Source: an uncultured Planctomycetales bacterium (GTDB lineage: Bacteria > Planctomycetota > Phycisphaerae > UBA1845 > PWPN01). Taken from it: a DNA stretch of 56,675 nt. The stretch spans positions 1 through 56,675 of the forward strand of contig CAZTQK010000002.1 of assembly GCA_964615635.1 (NCBI GenBank), given 5' to 3'. A program made the position numbers and the translations under genes. The notes under the pieces are model-generated. The model was given only the letters and a program-made list of their open reading frames with translations, had not been told where the DNA came from and ran no database searches. How positions within the stretch are numbered: position 1 is the first letter of the stretch; each line of letters opens with the position of its first letter. Below are positions 6,390 through 26,465 of the stretch, piece after piece.

Positions 6390-6577
6390 GGTCCGTGACA
6401 GTCTCGGCGGAAAGACGCTATGACTTCTTTCAGAACCGCGACCGTAAGGGAGCGGCCCCCGTATGGTGTTGGCCGCTTTGCGGTCTGGCCTGTTTTTCAC
6501 CGACTTGCAAAGGTCGGTCAAGCACCCCTCGTTTACGCTCGGGGTTCTGAAAGAGCCGCCTAAACCGTCACGCGCCC
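6390..6577. repeat. MITE-like repeat, family 1, copy B
   Basis: Left TIR GGTCCGTGACAGTC at 6390-6403. Core TTTCAGAACCGCGACCGTAAGGGAGCGGCC. The right end ...GGGGTTCTGAAAGAGCCGCCTAAACCGTCACGCGCC is degenerate. Confidence 0.8.
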
Positions 6578-6698
6578 GAATGAAGGCTTGATTGGCTTGC
6601 ACCTCGCCCGACGGTGTGGATAATTCGCACGTTCCCGTCGCGGTGCGCGGGATGTCCCGCGAATCTCTCGTTTCGGCGCTTGAGCAGAGGCAAGGGCC

Positions 6699-8297
6699 AT
6701 GCCGGCGGAATCAACAGTTGATATGGTGACCCAGAAGCTGGTCCCGATCGAATGGCTGATGGTCATCATCTTTTCGATCGGCATTATTGCATGGGGCTTC
6801 ATCATGCGCCGGGCGGCCGGCTCGTTGGAAGGCTCTTTTCTGGCCGGCCGCAAGGTGCCCGGCCTGCTGGCTTCCCTTTCCACGGTGGCGACCAACCTCA
6901 ATGCCAACGACTTCATCGGCGGTGCGGGTTTCGTCTACGCGTTTGGCGTGGTCATCCTGCACGGAAGCTGGGTCAACAGTCTGGCTCTGGTCCTGGTGTC
7001 ACTTTTCCTGGTCCAGAAGCTCAGGCGTCTCAACGTTTTTACTCTCGGAGGCTGGCTCGAGCGTCGGTATTGCTTCAGCGTCGGCTTCATGTACAGCCTC
7101 GCCTGGTCGGTGATCTGGATGTTGTTCAATCTCGGCCTCTACCTGTATGCCGGAGCTCTGGTTCTCCAGACGCTGGTTGGCTGGCCGCTGTATGAATCCA
7201 TCGTTGTGCTGTCGGTTATTGCGGCAGCGGTGACCCTGCTGGGCGGTTTCGGAGCCGTCGTCGCGGTTGACGTGCTGCAGATCCTGCTGATGTTCTTTCC
7301 GTTCATCTTTGTTGCCTGGGGAACAATGAGCGACATCGGCGGCATCGCTGAACTGGCCAGATCGCTTCCCGCGGACAAGGCTGCTTTCTGGACCCAAGAC
7401 ACGCCGTTCGGGGTGATGCCGATCATGCTGTTCGGCATCTTCTTCATGGGGTTGAGCTACTGGTCGACCGAGGCACAGGTCGTCCAGCGGCCGCTGGCCT
7501 CCAAGAGCGAAGAGGACTCGATCATCAGTTACCTTGGCGCGTCGTTCTGGTTCAGCATTCTCGTGCCGCTGCTCATTTCCCTGCCGGCGTTGGCCGCGAT
7601 CAAGTTCTACCCCGACCTCGAGAACAACGATCATGCGATGCCCATGCTGATCCGGCGCGTACTGCCGCGCGGCCTGTACGGCGTGACCGTCGTCGGACTC
7701 ATGGCCGGCGTCTTCTCCAGTGTTGAAGCTCAGATCAACTCGTTCTGCGCCATGTTCACGACCGACATCTACCGCCGGGTTCTGGTTCCCAATCGCAACG
7801 AGCGGCATTACCTGATTGCCTCGAAGGTCGCCGGGGTGGTCTTCGCGCTCGCGGCCATCGGGACGGCCGTGGTGTTCAGCTTCGCCAAGGAGGGGATGAT
7901 GCTGTTCGCCATCTCGGTGCTGGCGACGATCATGCCGCCGTTCGCCTCCGTGACCATCGTCGGCGCCCTCGATCGGAGGGTAAACAAGCATGGTGCATTG
8001 GCCGGGGTGATCGTCGCGGCTGCCGTTGCGATCGGTTTGGTCATTGCCGACAAGCTGGGATATCTGGCGAGCATCTCCAAGGAAACTCTCTACTTCAGGA
8101 CGATGGTTACTTTCCTGACAGGTGTGGTGGTCACCTATGCCGTCAGTCTGGCGAGCCGGCCGAGCCATGGCGGAGTTGAGGCTTCGTACACAGGCCTGGA
8201 CCTGTCGATGAAATGGAGCCCGAGGGTATTGCGCATGACGGTACTACTGCTCGCGGGCATGGCGGTGATGGTTGGGATCTGGTCGTACTACTTCTGA
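6699..8297 (+). CDS. sodium:solute symporter (SSF) family transporter
   Basis: 532 aa with about 13-14 TM helices and an SSF-like composition and layout. It is divergent from the sugar-uptake genes. Confidence 0.8.
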   Translation: MPAESTVDMVTQKLVPIEWLMVIIFSIGIIAWGFIMRRAAGSLEGSFLAGRKVPGLLASLSTVATNLNANDFIGGAGFVYAFGVVILHGSWVNSLALVLVSLFLVQKLRRLNVFTLGGWLERRYCFSVGFMYSLAWSVIWMLFNLGLYLYAGALVLQTLVGWPLYESIVVLSVIAAAVTLLGGFGAVVAVDVLQILLMFFPFIFVAWGTMSDIGGIAELARSLPADKAAFWTQDTPFGVMPIMLFGIFFMGLSYWSTEAQVVQRPLASKSEEDSIISYLGASFWFSILVPLLISLPALAAIKFYPDLENNDHAMPMLIRRVLPRGLYGVTVVGLMAGVFSSVEAQINSFCAMFTTDIYRRVLVPNRNERHYLIASKVAGVVFALAAIGTAVVFSFAKEGMMLFAISVLATIMPPFASVTIVGALDRRVNKHGALAGVIVAAAVAIGLVIADKLGYLASISKETLYFRTMVTFLTGVVVTYAVSLASRPSHGGVEASYTGLDLSMKWSPRVLRMTVLLLAGMAVMVGIWSYYF

Positions 8298-15827: not shown

Positions 15828-16760
15828 TCACACGCGGCGCCGGCGGAGGATCAACAGGCTGCCGGCTGCGAGCAATGCGGCCGTCGCCGGCTCGGGAATC
15901 ACCTCGATGTTGTCGATCAGCGTCACGTTCAGAAGGACGTCATTGGGATCGGTCGACGAACTCGCGTTGGTGTCGCTGTGGCCGAAGAAAATGTTTCCTC
16001 CGCCCAGGGTCACGGTGCTCAGGTCGACCTTTGCCAGCGGCAGCCCGTCGATCGACCAAGTCGCAAAGCCGTCGGCGACATCGATGATTACCCTGCGCCA
16101 TGCGAAGCTGGTCTCACCGACGTCGGTGCTGCCGGTTTGCCCTGGGAAGAGGGCAACCTGTGCACCGGGCGCCGACTGGCCGGTGAAGCCGGCGTAGTAG
16201 GCGTCGCTGTTGTTAATGCTGGTGGCGAAGTAGACCGGATTGCCGGCCGGGTACGAGGTCGATGCGGCCGACGAATACGCGCGGAAGTCCGACGCGGAGC
16301 CGCCGTCCAGCGTCGTGCCGAATGCCACGCTCTCCTTCGGGCTCGAACCGGGCCAGATGGCGACGTTGCCGGCCGTCCCGATGCCGTAGAGCGTGATCTG
16401 CGTTGAGCCGCTGCCGCCAGCCCCCAGGGGACCGACGTAGTTCTGCCACATATCGAAGGACACCGAGTAGTTTCCGGAGAAGCTCTGACCGTTTGGCGAC
16501 ACGCTAAAGCCGGAGAACACTCCCCCGCTGTTGTTGGCCGTCAGCTTCAGGCCGCGGGTGCCCGTCCCGTTCGGGGCGGAAGGCACACCGATCGCTGAGT
16601 AGTCGTAATGAAAGTCCGCCAGCACATCCGACAGGCCCGGATCATTGACAGTCCAGTTCGCTGTCGGGTCCACGTCGAAGTTCTCATTGTACAGGCTTGC
16701 CGAGGTCGAGCCCGCCGACACGGTAGCCGCCAGGACACCCAGGATGATCAGCCGATTCAT
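15828..16760 (-). CDS. PEP-CTERM sorting-domain secreted protein
   Basis: Start at MNRLIILGVLAATVSAGSTSA (AGGAGG SD). The C-terminus is VIPEPATAALLAAGSLLILRRRRV: a PEP motif, a TM helix and a basic tail. Confidence 0.85.
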   Translation of the reverse strand: MNRLIILGVLAATVSAGSTSASLYNENFDVDPTANWTVNDPGLSDVLADFHYDYSAIGVPSAPNGTGTRGLKLTANNSGGVFSGFSVSPNGQSFSGNYSVSFDMWQNYVGPLGAGGSGSTQITLYGIGTAGNVAIWPGSSPKESVAFGTTLDGGSASDFRAYSSAASTSYPAGNPVYFATSINNSDAYYAGFTGQSAPGAQVALFPGQTGSTDVGETSFAWRRVIIDVADGFATWSIDGLPLAKVDLSTVTLGGGNIFFGHSDTNASSSTDPNDVLLNVTLIDNIEVIPEPATAALLAAGSLLILRRRRV

Positions 16761-17005
16761 AATTGTTCCTCCTGTTTGGGTACAGCCTCGACGCCAAGGG
16801 TAGGTCGGCCCGGTGTGAGGCGTGGGTAGACCGATGCGTCCCATCGAACGCGACAAGTAGTCTGCAAATGGCAATGACTGCCTGAGCAATGTGGCCTCTC
16901 CTCCAGACCGTCCTACTATAGGACGCCAGGTTCGGCACTGACCACTTAAAAACCGGGAATCCGTCCGCTCTGGTCGCAGATGGACGGGGCGGCAGCTATC
17001 GGCTT

Positions 17006-17254
17006 ATGCTGCCGCGGGCCACGGCCACGGTATTCGTCGCAGACTATCGTCTGACTACCAAATGCGACGTCGACCAGGCGGATTTCGACGCGTTTCAAGC
17101 CTGCCTGTCCGGGTCTTTTGTCCCTCAGACCGAGCCCACCTGCGCATCTGCTCTGCCGGAAGAGGACAACGACGTGGATCAGGGCGAATGGGCCCGGTTC
17201 ATGGCCTGCTTTACGGGGCCAAGCGATCCCGCGAACTACCGGTGCGCGGAGTGA
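17006..17254 (+). CDS. small ORF made of two dockerin/EF-hand-like repeats; possibly a remnant of a larger secreted protein
   Basis: CDVDQADFDAFQACLSG and DVDQGEWARFMACFTGP resemble the C-terminal tag of the 28295-28900 protein (DSDVDQSDFGIFQRCYG). No signal peptide is present and the start is weak. Confidence 0.35.
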   Translation: MLPRATATVFVADYRLTTKCDVDQADFDAFQACLSGSFVPQTEPTCASALPEEDNDVDQGEWARFMACFTGPSDPANYRCAE

Positions 17255-17661
17255 GCGCCAAGAGAGACGTATCGCCAATGCTTTTTCCCCATCGCATCTC
17301 GCCGATCCGGAAGATTCTGCTGAATCGGTCGCCCGGGCACGAGACCGTGCCCGTAACCTCATGAACGATACGTGGGCCTCCAACGACAACCAGTAGCTCG
17401 CGAGCCGAAGACAGCCATGTCGAGGCGAGTCAATCCTCGCCGCCTGACGCCTGGACCATCCTTGCAGACGACCTCAAAACGGCTGCGGTCGTCGGGGATG
17501 CCCCAGACTTGTGTCCGATAATATCGCTTTTCCTCAGCACATATCGTCGCTCGTTGCAGTTGTCTTTTGACTCCATGCCGAGCAGGCGATGGCCGATAAC
17601 CATTGTGCGGGGTTGCGATGCCAGCCCACGAATGCGTTGCATGTGACCGGGAGGCACTCGG

Positions 17662-17883
17662 TTGGAAGAGGAACGACCAGACAGACTCGGCGCGGTGACA
17701 GCGGACCAGAAGTACCCGCAGGCCGGAGTCCCTGCGCAGGAGAGTGAGATCTCCAGGCAGCCAGATGCTACCGGGACGCGGCGCCACTTCCTTGGCCGCT
17801 CGGCGCGCAAGCTGGCCTATATCTCGCCGGTGGTACTGCTGCTGCGGCCGCGCCCGGCGTGCGCGTCGCGGATCTACTCGTGA
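17662..17883 (+). CDS. candidate precursor/substrate peptide of the PqqD-kinase-NTase cassette (73 aa, ends ...ACASRIYS)
   Basis: TTG start 7 nt after GGGAGG. The stop lies 5-17 nt before the PqqD-like gene. The C-terminal half, TRRHFLGRSARKLAYISPVVLLLRPRPACASRIYS, looks like a Tat-type signal followed by only a few residues and a terminal Ser. Confidence 0.4.
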   Translation: MEEERPDRLGAVTADQKYPQAGVPAQESEISRQPDATGTRRHFLGRSARKLAYISPVVLLLRPRPACASRIYS

Positions 17884-17900
17884 AGTGATTGGCGCGGCCA

Positions 17901-18242
17901 ATGGATCCCATGACGATGTCGTCAGGTTCACGGAAGGACTCATCAGGCGACCAACGGCGCTGGATGCCTATCCGGCGCGAGGGCCTCTGTTGCCGGGCGC
18001 TCGACGATGAAGCGGTTCTCTACGACCCCGCCCATCATGCAGTCCACTACCTGAACCGGACGGCCTGGTTCATCTGGAACTGCTGCAACGGCCGGCGCGA
18101 TGTCGAGGACATTGTCTTAGAGGTCGCCGCGGGATTTGAGCCGAGTGCCGGCCACGACAACCCGCTGGCGGTGATTCGCGACGACGTTCGCTGCACCCTG
18201 TCGAATCTGACGGAGAACGGCCTGATCGAGTCGGCTTTATGA
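17901..18242 (+). CDS. PqqD-family protein (RiPP recognition element-like)
   Basis: LDDEAVLYDPAHHAVHYLNRTAWFIWNCCNGRRDVEDIVLEV...DDVRCTLSNLTENGLIE matches the PqqD/RRE pattern. The start is uncertain (TTG 17889, or ATG 17901/17910/17916). Confidence 0.8.
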   Translation: MDPMTMSSGSRKDSSGDQRRWMPIRREGLCCRALDDEAVLYDPAHHAVHYLNRTAWFIWNCCNGRRDVEDIVLEVAAGFEPSAGHDNPLAVIRDDVRCTLSNLTENGLIESAL

Positions 18243-19195
18243 TCGAACCCGCAATCTCTAACACGGTTGAAACGTCTGCTTCGTCGCGTGCTCGTTCCAG
18301 CTTTCGCTTGTTCGGTGGCTGGCCCGAAGCTCGCTGCTATCACATTGGACCCGTGCCCGTGTCGCTCAGCAGCGTCCTGCCAGGTGTCGCGGCGGACTTT
18401 CACGAGCTGTACGGCACCTACGAGGTCGAGGCACCCGCCGGCAACGAGTTCGAAATACGAGTCATCGCTAAGCGGTCCGCACGATCGCTTCGGCGTTACT
18501 ATCATGTGGTCGCCAACGGGGAAAGCCTGTTCGCGATGCGGAACGAAAACGAGATCCTTCCGCACGTGGAATGGGCGATCAACACCATGGTTGCCACGCG
18601 GATGTCGCAGTATCTGCAGATTCACGCGTCGGTTGTGGCCCGCGACGGCAGGGCAATCATCTGTCCGGGCCAGCCGGGCCAGGGCAAGACGACTTTGGCG
18701 GCCGCATTGCTCACGCGGGGTTGGTCGTACCTGTCTGACGAATTCGCGCTGTTCAATCCTCAGACGCAGTTGCTCGAGCCTTATCCCAAAGCCTTGTGCA
18801 TCAAGGCGGGTTCCTTCGATGTCCTGCGCCGAATGCGCCTGCCGATCGATGTTGATCGAGTCTACTACAAGGGTGAAAAGGGACGCGTGACGCTGCTCGA
18901 CCCTCTCAAGATTCGGCCGAACATCGTCGCGGGTCATTGCCGGTTGGATATGGTGATCTTCCCGGAGGTTAACCATTCGTCCACTCCGGTCATTGAGAAC
19001 GTCTCCCGGGCCCAGACGGTCTTCGAGCTGACGCGTTGCTCCTTCAATTTCGGGAAGTTCCGCGAGCCCGGATTCAACCTGCTGGCCGACGTCGTCGAAC
19101 AAGTCGGCTGCTACCGACTTCGATGCGGGCATCTCGGGACGACTTGCGATCTGGTTGAGGCATTCTTCTCCCGCCAAAGCGGCCAGGAGACATAG
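18239..19195 (+). CDS. HPr kinase/phosphorylase-like P-loop protein (HprK-related kinase)
   Basis: ATGA start/stop overlap with the PqqD gene. Walker A is in an HprK C-domain-like context: AIICPGQPGQGKTTLAAALLTRGWSYLSDEFALF. Confidence 0.8.
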   Translation: MIEPAISNTVETSASSRARSSFRLFGGWPEARCYHIGPVPVSLSSVLPGVAADFHELYGTYEVEAPAGNEFEIRVIAKRSARSLRRYYHVVANGESLFAMRNENEILPHVEWAINTMVATRMSQYLQIHASVVARDGRAIICPGQPGQGKTTLAAALLTRGWSYLSDEFALFNPQTQLLEPYPKALCIKAGSFDVLRRMRLPIDVDRVYYKGEKGRVTLLDPLKIRPNIVAGHCRLDMVIFPEVNHSSTPVIENVSRAQTVFELTRCSFNFGKFREPGFNLLADVVEQVGCYRLRCGHLGTTCDLVEAFFSRQSGQET

Positions 19196-19196
19196 G

Positions 19197-20372
19197 ATGC
19201 GTCGCGGAGACAGCGGACAGGTCGGCCAAAGGCTTGACAGTCTGCTTGCGGGCTGCCTCACGGATCGTGCGTTGTTGGCGGTTGAGGAAGTCGCTCGCGA
19301 CGGACTGTGGGAGCAGATGGTCGGGTATGCCTGCTCGGCCGGGGTTGGCGGGGCGATCGCCCGCCAGATGGCTGCACGCAATGTGGATCTCCCGCACGCC
19401 GCATCGATGCAACTCAACTCTTACAGACAGCACGTGGCGGCGGCAACGACCTATGGGATGGCGAAAAGCGAGTCGGCATTGGCCCGTCTGCAGGAAGCCG
19501 GGATCCCGTTCCTGGTGCTCAAGGGGGCGGCACTGAATACGGTGCTGTACGACGGACCGGGCCTCCGGCCAATGATGGATGTCGATCTGCTGATTCGGCC
19601 TTCTGACGCGCAGCGAGCCGACGCCGCACTCGCAAGCTTCGGCTGCCGTCGGGGCCCCGATCTGGTCAATGAAAACTTCTACCCGCGTTTCTACTATGAG
19701 CGGGAGTACTTCCTGCCCTGCCGTCCGGAGGTCAAGATCGACCTGCACGTGCGGCCGTTCCGTCCGCTGCGATACGCCGCCATTCTGCCCGACGACGTCT
19801 TGTGGGACAAACCGATGTCGGTCCGTTACGGCCGCTTGACGGTACTGATCCCGAACGTTGAGAACATGCTGATCCACTTGGCCGTCCACGCCGCCTGCCA
19901 CGGCGCGGGCGAGCTGAAATGGCTCTACGATATCAAGCTGTGGCTGGAACGATACGGAGATCGTCTTGATATCGATGAGCTGGTCAACAAATGCCGCAAG
20001 TGGAAGCTCACCTGGCCGGCACGTGTGGCGTTGGAGCAGGTCGGACGGCTGTTCAGTGAATCCTCCATCTATCTGCAGCGGGTGTTGGATGCATTGCGTC
20101 GGCAACCGGCTGGCTGGCAAGATCGACTCGCGCTGGCCCAGTGCCCTCGTGACGCGGCCCATCCGCTGGCCGCCGTCGCGGTGAACGTGCTCTGTACGCC
20201 GGGCGTCCGATTCAAGCTTGGCTACCTTCGGGCCGTGCTGCTCCCTGGCCGATCGCACCTGGCCCAACTCTACCACGGCCGCCATCCCGGCTGGCCGCTC
20301 GTGGCCCACGCCGTTCGGATCGGCCGTCGCCTGACACGGCGATTCTCCCGCACCTCCGCCGAGCACGCGTAG
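19197..20372 (+). CDS. uncharacterised nucleotidyltransferase family protein (PF14907/NTP_transf_5-like)
   Basis: The ATG lies 1 nt after the kinase stop, with GGAG upstream. FLVLKGAALNTVLYDGPGLRPMMDVDLLIRPSD is the family hallmark (LKG...R..DxDLL). Confidence 0.75.
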   Translation: MRRGDSGQVGQRLDSLLAGCLTDRALLAVEEVARDGLWEQMVGYACSAGVGGAIARQMAARNVDLPHAASMQLNSYRQHVAAATTYGMAKSESALARLQEAGIPFLVLKGAALNTVLYDGPGLRPMMDVDLLIRPSDAQRADAALASFGCRRGPDLVNENFYPRFYYEREYFLPCRPEVKIDLHVRPFRPLRYAAILPDDVLWDKPMSVRYGRLTVLIPNVENMLIHLAVHAACHGAGELKWLYDIKLWLERYGDRLDIDELVNKCRKWKLTWPARVALEQVGRLFSESSIYLQRVLDALRRQPAGWQDRLALAQCPRDAAHPLAAVAVNVLCTPGVRFKLGYLRAVLLPGRSHLAQLYHGRHPGWPLVAHAVRIGRRLTRRFSRTSAEHA

Positions 20373-23561: not shown

Positions 23562-26465
23562 TCAACTTGCCACGATATTGACCATCCGGCTGGGGATACA
23601 GATCACCTTGCGGACGGTCTTTCCGGCCAGAAACTTCTGGACCTGTTCGTCGGCCATGGCCGCAGCCTGCATAGCGGATTCAGACTGGGCCTGATCGGCC
23701 GGCAGCTTGATCCGCGAGCGGACCTTGCCGCTGATCTGCACCGGGATCTCGACCTCCGCCTCGACGCACAGGGCCTCATCGTAGGTCGGCCAGTCTTCAA
23801 ACGCGATGGACCGCTGCCAGCTCGAACCGGCCATCTGCTGCCACAGTTCCTCGCACAGATGCGGGGCGATGGGTGCCAGCAGCTTGAGGAACGGCTCGGC
23901 TATTTCGCGAGGCAGCGTGTCGCCCTTCATCGCGTTGTTCAGCTCGATCAACGCGGCAATCGCCGTATTGAACCGAAGGCCCTGCATGTCGCCGGTCACC
24001 TTGCGGATGGTTCGGTGCAGCAGACGTCGCAGCGAATCCTCGGCCGGGGCGTCGGTGACCTTCAATGATCCGTCCTCAGTGATGAATCTCCGCCACACGG
24101 CCAGAAGAAAGCGGCTCATGCCGACGATGTCGCGAACGCTCCAGGGCTTGCTGGCTTCCAGGGGGCCCATGTACATCTCATAGACCCGCAACGTGTCGGT
24201 CCCGTATTCGTGGCAGATGTCGTCCGGGGCTACCGCATTCTTGAGACCCTTTCCCATCTTGCCATACTTCTCGAAGACCTCCTCACCCTGCCAGAAGTAC
24301 TGCTGACCCTTCTCGCCCTGGACCTCCGGGGCAGGCTTCCCGTTGGCGCTGACCACCTCGACGACTGGTACACGTATGCCGTTGGCTTTCTCGTAGTAGT
24401 AGGCCTGGATGTACCCTTGATTGAACAACCGTCCGAACGGCTCGGCGGTGCTGACGCAGCCGAGGTCGAAAAGCACCTTGTGCCAGAACCGCGAATAGAG
24501 CAGATGCAACACGGCATGCTCGGCCCCGCCGACGTACAGATCGACGCCGCCGCACGGCGGCGCTCCCGGATGGTTCTTCGGGGCCATCCAGTAGTTCTCG
24601 ATTTGCGGGCCGACGAACGCCTGGTCGTTGCGGTTGTCGAGGTACCGCAAGTAATACCAGCACGAACCCGCCCACTGCGGCATGGTGTTCAGCTCGCGAT
24701 AGAACTCCCGCGCTTCGGTTCCCGCCGGTCGAGACTGCCCGGGCTTGAGCAGCTTGACCATGCCGGCATCGGTCACGTAGCCGCAGATGTTGACCCAGTC
24801 CTTCGCACGCCCGAGCGGGGGCGCGGGCGGGGCGTTGGGATCATCCGATGCCTGCGGACGATAATCGTCGATGGCCGGCAGTTCCACGGGCAGCTCGCTC
24901 TCGTCCAATGCCAGCACCTCGCCGGTCTTCGGGTCATGCACGATGGGGAAAGGCTCACCCCAGTAACGTTGACGGCTGAACAGCCAGTCTCGCAGCTTGT
25001 AGTTGACCGCCCCCTTGCCCAGGTTCTTCTGTTCGAGCCAAGTGGTGATTCGCTTCTTGAATTCGGCGGTGGTCAACCCGTCGAACTCGCCTGAGTTGAC
25101 CGCAACACCGTCCCCGACAAAGCCCCGCCAATCCTCGTTGCCCGGCGGCCGAACGACCTGGATGATGGGAAGGTTGAACTTCTGGGCAAACTCGAAATCG
25201 CGGGTGTCATGGGCCGGCACGGCCATGATCGCCCCGGTTCCGTAGCCCATCAGAACATAGTCGGCCACCCAGATCGGAATCTTCTCCCCGTTGACCGGGT
25301 TGATCGCATAAGCACCCGTGAAAACGCCTGTCTTCTCCTTGGTGTCGGCGGTGCGGTCGAGATCGGACTTGTGTTTCGCTTCTTCCACATAGGCACGAAC
25401 GGCTCCACGCTGTTGCGGCGTCGTGATCTGGCTCACAAGCTCGTGCTCCGGCGCCAGCACCATGTAGGTTGCCCCGAACAGCGTGTCCGGCCGGGTGGTG
25501 TAGACGCGGATGACCTCTTCGGAGCCGTCAATGGCGAATTCGACCTCTGCCCCCTCGCTGCGGCCGATCCAGTTTTGCTGCATCAGCTTGATCGCCTCGG
25601 GCCAATCGACCGGATCGAGATCGCGTTCGAGACGGTCGGCGTATTTGGTGATCCGCAGCATCCACTGCCGCAACGGCCGTCGGTAAACGGGGTGATTCCC
25701 TCGATCGCTTCAGCCCTCGTTGGTCACTTCTTCATTGGCCAGCACCGTCCCCAGGGCCGGGCACCAGTTCACCGGAATCTCGTCGATGAACGCCAGTCGT
25801 TGCCCGTCGATGACTGCCCGGCGCTCGGCCGGCGAAAGCTCCTCCCACTTGCTGATCCCCACCGGACTGCCCGTGATGGCCGAGATGGTCGGCCACGTTG
25901 CGACTTCACCATCCGGAGTCACCCCGAGGCGGCCCTGCTCCAGCTTGTGGATCAGTCCGCTGATCGGCCGGGCGGCGTCGGCCTCCGGGTCGTACCAACT
26001 GTTGAACAGCTTGAGGAAGATCCATTGGGTCCATTTGTAGAAAGCGACATCGGTGGTGGCCAGCTCGCGGTCCCAGTCGTAGCCGAGGCCAAGCCGCTGC
26101 ATCTGGGCCCGCATGTTGTCGATGTTCTTCTGGGTGGTTTCCCGCGGCGGTACGCCGTGCTCGACGGCGAACTGCTCGGCCGGAAGGCCGAACGCGTCGT
26201 AGCCCATCGGATGCAGGACATTGTACCCGCGCATGCGCAAGAAGCGAGCGTAGATGTCCGTGGCGATGTAACCGAGCGGGTGGCCGACGTGCAGACCCAC
26301 GCCGCTGGGGTACGGGAACATGTCCAGCACGTAGAACTTCGGCTTGGCCGCGTCGAAGTCCGCGTCTCCCGGCTGGGGTGTGCGGAAGGTCTTCTGCTCG
26401 ATCCAGTACTTCTGCCACTTCGCCTCAATGGCGGCGAAATCATAGCGCCCGCGTTCCGAACTCAT
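23562..26465 (-). CDS. leuS: leucine--tRNA ligase, interrupted by a single in-frame TGA at 25710-25712
   Basis: The N-terminal ORF (25710-26465) carries [12 protein letters not shown] (HIGH) and ends ...[19 protein letters not shown]. The same frame continues after the TGA as [27 protein letters not shown]..., and the [10 protein letters not shown] (KMSKS-type) motif lies further on. Confidence 0.9.

Follow-up and report, generated by a model that had tools for sequence, protein, structure and literature searches.

The peptide encoded by a small gene in front of a three-gene enzyme cassette is, in our assessment, the modified substrate precursor of that cassette, a reading to which we assign a probability of roughly 60%. 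Gene and cassette lie in a 56,675-nucleotide stretch (the window; contig CAZTQK010000002.1) from an uncultured Planctomycetales bacterium, whose source genome is a 70%-complete assembly of 638 contigs. The cassette encodes a PqqD-family protein, which is a recognition element (RRE) of the kind found with peptides that ribosomes make and that are modified after translation (RiPPs), an HprK-related kinase and a nucleotidyltransferase-family protein (NTase). The small gene is a 73-codon open reading frame (ORF) with a TTG start at 17662 and a TGA stop at 17881-17883, and its product is MEEERPDRLGAVTADQKYPQAGVPAQESEISRQPDATGTRRHFLGRSARKLAYISPVVLLLRPRPACASRIYS. A reading made from the DNA letters alone, hereafter the sequence-only reading, had placed this ORF 7 nt downstream of GGGAGG and just before the PqqD-like gene, which our analysis confirms. 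We are highly confident that the small ORF is a genuine gene and belongs to the adjacent cassette as its cognate partner. The elements concerned are the following.

17649 to 17654, plus strand: Shine-Dalgarno-like GGGAGG, 7 nt before TTG 17662.
17662 to 17883, plus strand: small gene, candidate precursor or substrate peptide (upstream homologues, open frame, lowest pN/pS).
17889 to 18242, plus strand: PqqD-family RRE/peptide chaperone, with an alternative start at ATG 17901 (PF05402 at 1.9e-12; TIGR04353 at 24.4 bits, cut-off 35).
18239 to 19195, plus strand: HprK-related kinase A-like P-loop protein (TIGR04352 at 1.7e-57 and 194.7 bits, cut-off 200, spanning 3-276 of 280).
19197 to 20372, plus strand: PF14907 (NTP_transf_5) nucleotidyltransferase-family protein (PF14907 at 1.4e-41; the ORF list gives a TTG start at 19155, and ATG 19197 follows the kinase stop).

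The length of the small ORF is by itself no evidence for a gene, because this high-GC DNA holds 157 ORFs of at least 30 residues in 14 kb, among them a 194-codon antisense ORF (17359-17943) across the same place. Spurious ORFs of this size are thus common, and the peptide could in principle be a chance ORF, or the real gene could be the long antisense one. Comparison with relatives speaks against both. A six-frame search of 41 related genomes gave protein matches in the genus's three other genomes (E-values of 1e-18 to 1e-21) and also in other genera belonging to the family and order. In eight related loci the peptide frame is the only one of the six without stops, with a ratio of nonsynonymous to synonymous differences (pN/pS) of 0.34 pooled over 28 pairs; the other five frames contain 1-9 stops and give pN/pS values of 0.47-1.92. 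Within the genus, pN/pS over an ungapped, conserved block of 30 codons is 0.11-0.39 at pS 0.15-0.48. Protein-level homologues of the peptide reach an E-value of 1e-26, and public gene callers had predicted the same peptides. Since the peptide frame alone is open, and has the lowest pN/pS, the chance and antisense readings are ruled out for practical purposes.

The translation signals are conserved as well. All four genomes of the genus keep GGGAG, and each has a TTG or GTG start at one shared alignment column. An alternative start, GTG 17695, would give a product of 62 residues, and a 90%-identical metagenomic relative (P0009) has ATG at the position of this GTG. The N-terminus is either 17662 or 17695, both within a poorly conserved acidic region.

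The small gene is tied to the cassette by its position. Its stop is followed, after a gap of 5 nt, by the first start (TTG 17889) of the PqqD ORF; the cassette genes are co-directional and overlap or abut, with the kinase gene overlapping the PqqD gene through ATGA. The order peptide-PqqD-kinase-NTase is kept, on the same strand, in the seven relatives from five genera whose loci were read in detail. The kinase is present in 22 of the 41 relatives, and each of the 13 peptide matches (E<1e-3) shares contig and strand with the kinase, 0.4-2.4 kb upstream of it; the kinase-less genomes among the 41 gave no peptide match at E<1e-3. Public contigs with homologues carry the same four genes between unrelated flanks (aminotransferase/PilZ/M16 peptidase, or CNNM transporters), and because the flanking genes vary between genomes, the four genes form a self-contained module. 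Even in the most divergent members, which have the order NTase-peptide-PqqD-kinase, the genes are still adjacent. The small gene adjoins the RRE maturation set in all loci examined, with a conserved leader and a hypervariable tail, which is the pattern of a RiPP precursor.

Five segments can be distinguished in the peptide.

17662 to 17775, plus strand: acidic, hydrophilic and variable N-terminal extension, residues 1-38 (sequence and length poorly conserved in the family).
17776 to 17793, plus strand: twin-arginine motif T39-R-R-H-F-L44 (R40, R41 and F43 invariant; the RR pair is invariant in the proteobacterial partner proteins, too).
17809 to 17844, plus strand: hydrophobic segment K50-LAYISPVVLLL61, containing Y53-x-x-P56-x-V58; putative RRE-binding strand and/or h-region of a signal (Y53 and P56 invariant).
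17845 to 17865, plus strand: R62-P-R-P-A-C-A68, a basic, Pro-containing c-region with AxA resembling a signal-peptidase-I site (P63 and A66 invariant).
17866 to 17880, plus strand: tail S69-R-I-Y-S73, the candidate core, whose Ser hydroxyls are the likely acceptor sites by prediction (tail identical in the genus; short tails Ser-rich).

A profile built from eight peptides retrieved 56 cluster representatives (90% identity) from Planctomycetes and Phycisphaerae assemblies, all of them "hypothetical" or unnamed and without a Pfam domain. A HMMER scan of 1.84 billion representatives (50% clustering) gave 192 matches at E<=1e-3. One of these, P0057 (4900 residues, nine "matches"), was discarded as a false positive made of IPT/TIG-like repeats that contain YAAPxI. 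Pfam and NCBIfam hold no family model for the window peptide or its relatives; some relatives give sub-threshold matches to Tat-signal models (twin-arginine translocation; 13-15 bits), confined to the RR motif. Against 300 evenly sampled genomes of the phylum the profile returned zero matches with 18 candidates scored per genome, a limit of sensitivity and not an absence, as divergent leaders are present in sampled lineages that the profile missed and were found there by reading the loci.

Conservation within the family is concentrated in the leader. Among 36 aligned members, R40, R41, F43, Y53, P56, P63 and A66 are strictly invariant and A68 is nearly so; R49, L51, A52 and L60 join them in the wider set of invariant or near-invariant positions. 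The consensus order is (S/T)RRxFL, a basic linker, KLAYxxPxVLL, a basic-Pro stretch and AxA. Its geometry is fixed, with 13 residues from RR to the Tyr in 132 of 184 members and 15 from the Tyr to the end of AxA, or its small-x-small equivalent, in 121 of 184. Two other descriptions of the segment do not hold. Taking ...PACAS for a lipoprotein site fails as positions -3/-2 (R/P, P) misfit the lipobox and the Cys is replaced by V, L, I or F in many relatives; a transmembrane helix fails as 11 hydrophobic residues are too few.

The leader extends well beyond this lineage, to Proteobacteria, Acidobacteriota and Gemmatimonadota. Kinase-anchored sampling of one-genome-per-species contigs yielded 80 loci from Phycisphaerae, other Planctomycetota, many Beta- and Gammaproteobacteria, Vicinamibacteria, Gemmatimonadota and Stellaceae; the proteobacterial loci include Massilia, Pseudoduganella, Rheinheimera, Methylococcaceae, Roseateles, Thioalkalivibrio and Alteromonas. 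In nearly every locus with sufficient upstream DNA, the gene right before the PqqD gene encodes a leader-bearing product. Across phyla this leader consists of a hydrophilic stretch, RR(R)xF/L, a short hydrophobic ...(A/S/T)P(V/I/F)(V/L)(L/M)TL.S... with an invariant Pro, and small-x-small. When the profile of the Phycisphaerae peptides was matched to that of the proteobacterial N-termini, RR, Pro and AxA aligned at 76.5% probability (E-value 2e-5). What follows the leader depends on the lineage. The product ends 5-70 residues past it in Planctomycetota, Vicinamibacteria, Stellaceae and Gemmatimonadota; in Proteobacteria another 100-260 residues follow, and the mature parts are of several unrelated kinds (L035-L104; for example L057 3216-3818, L074 2895-3608 and L064 3080-3643), a common type having C.SPS..SGN(L/T)S....C..SPGYWK right after the leader. 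Pfam and NCBIfam have no family for either the short or the long, proteobacterial leader-bearing products. The leader is the common denominator of all these cassettes, and nothing argues more strongly that it is what the cassette recognises. The sequence-only reading had proposed the peptide as a substrate and a comparison of the small ORFs upstream of homologous cassettes as the check. That comparison found RRxFL, the hydrophobic segment and AxA conserved in many genera and several phyla, and by its conservation beside orthologous cassettes the peptide emerges as a strong candidate substrate or partner.

The leader also precedes tails of 30-50 residues rich in Cys. In these products RRxF..K.AY..P.V..L...AxA is followed by GSPC..D.DCC...C (L031 1622-2300, L032 3026-3573, L033 3351-3542, L034 ~1931 and L046 ~1677; also P0100-P0189), and the tails show weak, sub-threshold similarity to conotoxin/knottin models. 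Such loci have the NTase upstream of the peptide or peptides, and L031 has two Cys-rich-tail genes in tandem. A cassette variant in another planctomycete, L017 (G066:C184, ~6500-6702, minus strand), combines a radical-SAM/SPASM protein with the PqqD protein and the HprK-like kinase; its leader-bearing Cys-rich peptide ends in QSASCQPENCHPVDCIPGDCNPGPCVPASCRPAN, with repeated Cys-x-Pro.

The cassette enzymes correspond to the "HPr-rel-A system" of NCBIfam (TIGR04352, TIGR04353 and PF14907), with the same three proteins in the same gene order. The kinase and the PqqD protein of the window differ from it in falling just below the curated cut-offs, which points to a divergent planctomycete branch, and NCBIfam has no model for a fourth member, the leader-bearing peptide or protein. 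TIGR04352 is by far the best model for the kinase yet remains 5 bits short, and the kinases of all 22 kinase-bearing relatives also score below the cut-off. A profile of this PqqD group finds, at E-values of 1e-14 to 1e-20, proteins to which NCBI and JGI give the name "HPr-rel-A system PqqD family peptide chaperone". Motifs of catalytic type are intact in the enzymes. Those of the kinase are invariant in 10 homologues, both in the P-loop (G147, G149, K150 and T152) and in S166-D167-E168. The NTase contains MMDVDLL, a DVD motif that may correspond to D134/D136 of PsmN.

The fold of the PqqD protein is more informative than its sequence. Sequence searches of the PqqD protein, the kinase and the NTase against PDB sequences gave no match, so that only the fold search was informative here. 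The AlphaFold model of the PqqD protein, made from a 20-sequence alignment, has a mean confidence (pLDDT) of 86.6. Its closest solved folds are the lasso-peptide B1 protein TbiB1 with leader (5V1U and 5V1V) and 6JX3, at template-modelling (TM) scores of 0.80-0.84 (target-normalised) and root-mean-square deviations of 2.1-2.4 Å; the PqqD structure 5SXY ranks lower. No natural RRE-peptide fusion of this subfamily was present among the top 120 PqqD homologues.

The leader shares a motif with lasso leaders as well. In lasso leaders, those from kinase/NTase-type clusters among them, the YxxPxL motif takes up positions -17 to -12 (PMC10368454). In the window peptide Y53-I-S-P56-V-V58 is of the form YxxPx(V/L), and counting 17 residues from Y53 places a boundary after S69, one residue past AxA; in sister genera Gly is the first residue after that boundary (ACAS, then GGSQ...). 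A YxxPxL-type leader and a discrete B1-type RRE are both present here, in the window peptide and the PqqD model. The resemblance is closest to the clusters of phospho- and phosphoglyco-lasso peptides (PadeK, PsmK, ThcoK, SyanK and BsfK; PsmN and BsfN), in which a small precursor likewise stands beside a PqqD-type RRE, an HprK-like kinase and an enzyme of the NTase family, and it extends to the B1-like fold, the lasso spacing of YxxPx(V/L) and a Ser in the tail, here also terminal.

The same features could belong to a degenerate kinase-type lasso cluster that lost its cyclase and protease and is non-functional or decaying, given that the RRE fold is nearest lasso B1, the YxxPxV motif is at lasso spacing and the kinase and NTase pair is known from lasso clusters. 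We regard this as very unlikely. The lasso B2 peptidase (PF13471) was not found above cut-off in the source genome (G000) or in four relatives that are 94-100% complete (G001, G003, G009 and G018), and no lasso cyclase was found among the neighbours scanned with Pfam, a scan confined to the neighbourhood. The tail past the leader is SRIYS or RIYS, and 4-12 residues in relatives, and has no acidic acceptor; a lasso core has about 15-25 residues with Asp or Glu at position 7-9, and a tail of 4-9 residues without Asp/Glu cannot form a lasso. The leader differs too, with its invariant twin-arginine motif, basic c-region and AxA, and with Ala instead of Thr/Ile at -2. Selection has kept the module in many genera and phyla, in every case with no lasso genes nearby. 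To our knowledge, a twin-arginine motif has not been reported for lasso leaders.

The tail is the least conserved part of the peptide. RIYS is identical across the genus and in further metagenomic relatives, and other genera differ (GGSQLTQA, GGSQITP, NGSTLTYWD..., ...LTKP), the nearest sister genera not being Ser-terminal. Three kinds of tail follow the leader: short ones rich in Ser, Gly and Thr (RIYS, GGSQLTQA, GGSQITP, ASPSS and SGSGS), the knottin-like Cys-rich ones of 30-50 residues, and a few rich in Lys and His. A terminal Ser occurs in 64 of the 126 short-tail members (51%) versus 1 of 62 long-tail members. About 19 of these 64 are RIYS variants in what is a redundant set, and without them the count is 45 of 107, so the enrichment stays; Ser makes up 18% of the residues in short tails. 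A terminal Ser is a frequent, not a defining, feature of the family.

The other expectations of the sequence-only reading fared unevenly. The twin-arginine, hydrophobic and AxA-like features it listed in the "last 40 residues" are present, in a string that is in fact 37 residues long. The genus and half of the short-tail relatives retain its C-terminal Ser, which is absent from close sister genera and from nearly all long-tail members. Its premise that lasso-type kinases modify the C-terminal Ser is incomplete: PsmK and PadeK phosphorylate the last Ser of a lasso precursor (PMC6993621), and BsfK phosphorylates Ser3 of the core (PMC10368454).

Its further suggestion, that the ORF is the orphaned signal peptide of a decayed gene, is contradicted. 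According to this explanation the peptide would be a leftover Tat signal of a once longer secreted protein, with no function of its own. Truncation could indeed yield a short form, as proteobacterial cassettes have a protein of 100-260 residues with the same kind of leader at this place. The 5 nt between the stop and the PqqD ORF, however, leave no room for remnants. Four genomes at pS 0.15-0.48 have the stop at the same position and an identical RIYS tail, the frame is under purifying selection while the other frames contain stops, and short forms of 56-100 residues are the rule in dozens of Planctomycetota clusters. We consider decay most unlikely.

The leader can also be read as an export signal. 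T39-R-R-H-F-L-G agrees with the Tat consensus (S/T)-R-R-x-F-L-K, and the c-region R62-P-R-P-A66-C-A68 has the basic residues, the Pro at -6 and the AxA at -3/-1 of a Tat signal. The tatC gene is present in the source genome and four relatives. Tat is the bacterial route for substrates that need completion in the cytoplasm, so cytoplasmic modification followed by Tat export would be coherent. Tat signals with proofreading chaperones (of the TorD, DmsD and NapD type) are similar in RRxFL, c-region, tatC and a small cytoplasmic binding protein encoded alongside; the window system differs in its basic linker, its short, very hydrophobic and Pro-containing segment, its five-residue passenger and its RRE in place of a TorD-like fold. 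In layout alone, the peptide resembles the Bacillus Phr pentapeptides, whose precursors of ~40-70 residues consist largely of an export signal and have their active part at the very C-terminus, a few residues long; Phr peptides use the Sec route, are unmodified and act on Rap receptors, and no such receptor was seen here. That the peptide is exported by Tat and cleaved falls somewhat short of an even chance.

Taken as the precursor of the cassette, the peptide would be processed as follows. The four genes, whose packing is observed, would be co-transcribed and expressed as one tight operon. The PqqD-type RRE would bind the leader, probably through the K-LAY-x-x-P-x-V-LL strand, by analogy with the binding of YxxPxL by lasso B1 proteins. 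It would then present the tail SRIYS to the kinase for phosphorylation of a Ser hydroxyl, at S69 or S73. The PF14907 enzyme may add a further group to the phosphate, as suggested by the PsmK/PsmN pair of pseudomycoidin, where the NTase-like PsmN, directly or otherwise, adds one or two hexoses onto the phosphoserine (PMC6993621, PMC9266682). The finished product might be exported by Tat, and signal peptidase would cut after A68 to release a modified oligopeptide. The PqqD protein could act in the manner of a Tat-proofreading chaperone that holds the signal until modification is complete.

Several observations weigh against this account. The partners in Proteobacteria are proteins of 100-260 residues with unrelated mature parts and the leader as sole common element, so it might be the leader on which the cassette acts, or the cassette might do no more than chaperone it. 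Conservation does not single out an acceptor residue; sister genera have no C-terminal Ser, and one of them (G018) has Ala in place of S69. The hydrophobic segment is an unusual Tat h-region: it has 11 uncharged residues with a mean Kyte-Doolittle (KD) hydropathy of 2.38 and starts 6 residues past the motif, behind R46, R49 and K50 of the GRSARK linker. For comparison, 41 long ORFs of the source genome with Tat-like N-termini have an h-region with a median of 16 residues, an offset of 1 and a KD of 1.10+-0.38, so that the window segment is more than three standard deviations more hydrophobic and departs from a typical Tat h-region, which is moderately hydrophobic, about 12-20 residues long and set directly behind the motif. 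The Tat models PF10518 and TIGR01409 (Pfam/NCBIfam) give no match to the window peptide, and we know of no precedent for a five-residue Tat passenger. Regarding the leader motif, replacement of Y, P and L by Ala in BsfA did not abolish phosphorylation (PMC10368454), and for this reason the YxxP motif need not be a requirement of the kinase.

In a different view the peptide is a genuine partner that escapes modification. The PqqD protein might only chaperone it, as a mini-protein targeted by Tat or Sec or as a membrane-associated leader, or it could be a regulator or scaffold of the kinase and NTase, the true substrate being something else such as a sugar, a lipid or another protein. In favour of this view, the leader alone is conserved across phyla, no tail residue is universally conserved, and some proteobacterial cassettes adjoin polysaccharide-export genes (a Wza-like ORF upstream in L037 and L074). 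On the other side, the nearest structural relatives of the RRE bind a precursor that then gets modified, and where HprK-type kinases occur with an RRE, it is the peptide itself that they phosphorylate. The enrichment of the tails in Ser, Thr and Gly, with half of the short ones Ser-terminal, would be needless for a pure leader or regulator. We judge an unmodified partner to be unlikely and continue to prefer the modified precursor.

A wider generalisation is tentative, and we think it rather doubtful in its full form. The peptides would constitute a new RiPP-like class in which a twin-arginine signal doubles as RRE leader: the PqqD protein, a Tat-proofreading chaperone with an RRE fold, would hold the signal, the kinase and the PF14907 enzyme would phosphorylate and further decorate a tail of 4-10 residues, and Tat export with signal peptidase would release the product, for example as a signal molecule (S-R-I-Y-S). 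The same machinery would serve knottin-like peptides, and proteins of 100-260 residues in other phyla.

Upstream of the small gene the window has one further conserved element.

17592 to 17600, plus strand: box GCCGATAAC, possible promoter or operator element of the operon (conserved upstream; single copy in the 56.7-kb window).

This 9-mer is found in the window and, 107-203 nt 5' of the RR codon, in eight of eight related loci from five genera (L002-L008 and L025). It mostly has TG directly before it, is invariant in the genus alignment and probably serves the operon as promoter or operator. Locus L007 has an additional CCGATAAC 29 nt farther upstream of the conserved box. An Rfam scan of 16800-18000 gave no credible match.

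The surroundings of the cassette offer a few other observations. In Oxalobacteraceae the cassette lies directly downstream of a polysaccharide-export (Wza-like) gene (L037 and L074, ~2050-2800; also L061, L083 and L100), and in the window the nearest gene on the upstream side, divergently oriented, encodes a PEP-CTERM protein (15828-16889, minus strand). There is a hint here of a link between the cassette and exopolysaccharide loci, which the variable flanks in Phycisphaerae do not support. The 770-bp spacer between the PEP-CTERM gene and the peptide gene contains an 82-codon ORF (17006-17254, plus strand) with two DVDQxDF/W..F..C..G repeats of dockerin/EF-hand-like type. Farther away, leuS (23562-26465, minus strand) encodes an otherwise intact leucyl-tRNA synthetase with a single in-frame TGA at 25710-25712, a site that we take to be Lys or Arg in relatives. 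The TGA could be a sequencing or population variant, the mark of a pseudogene, or a case of recoding.

In the literature that we searched, neither a substrate nor a function is given for the HPr-rel-A cassette, as is also true of the family libraries, and a leader-bearing partner is not described. HprK-type kinases with PqqD proteins and NTases appear there only within lasso clusters; the RRE-Finder paper and a 2025 paper on RRE structure make no mention of kinase or NTase contexts. What appears to be new is a leader-bearing fourth member of an HPr-rel-A-type cassette, in which a putative export-signal leader is combined with lasso-type tailoring enzymes and with no class-defining cyclase.

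A twin-arginine, lasso-like leader of fixed geometry in front of the cassette gives the HPr-rel-A system a testable substrate. Its product here comprises some five residues past the predicted cleavage site, which suits synthesis and mass spectrometry. If the proposal is correct, it would tie RRE-guided peptide chemistry to Tat export and would explain the role of lasso-type "tailoring" enzymes where there is no lasso. It would also reveal a large, unannotated family of small secreted products, Cys-rich mini-proteins among them.

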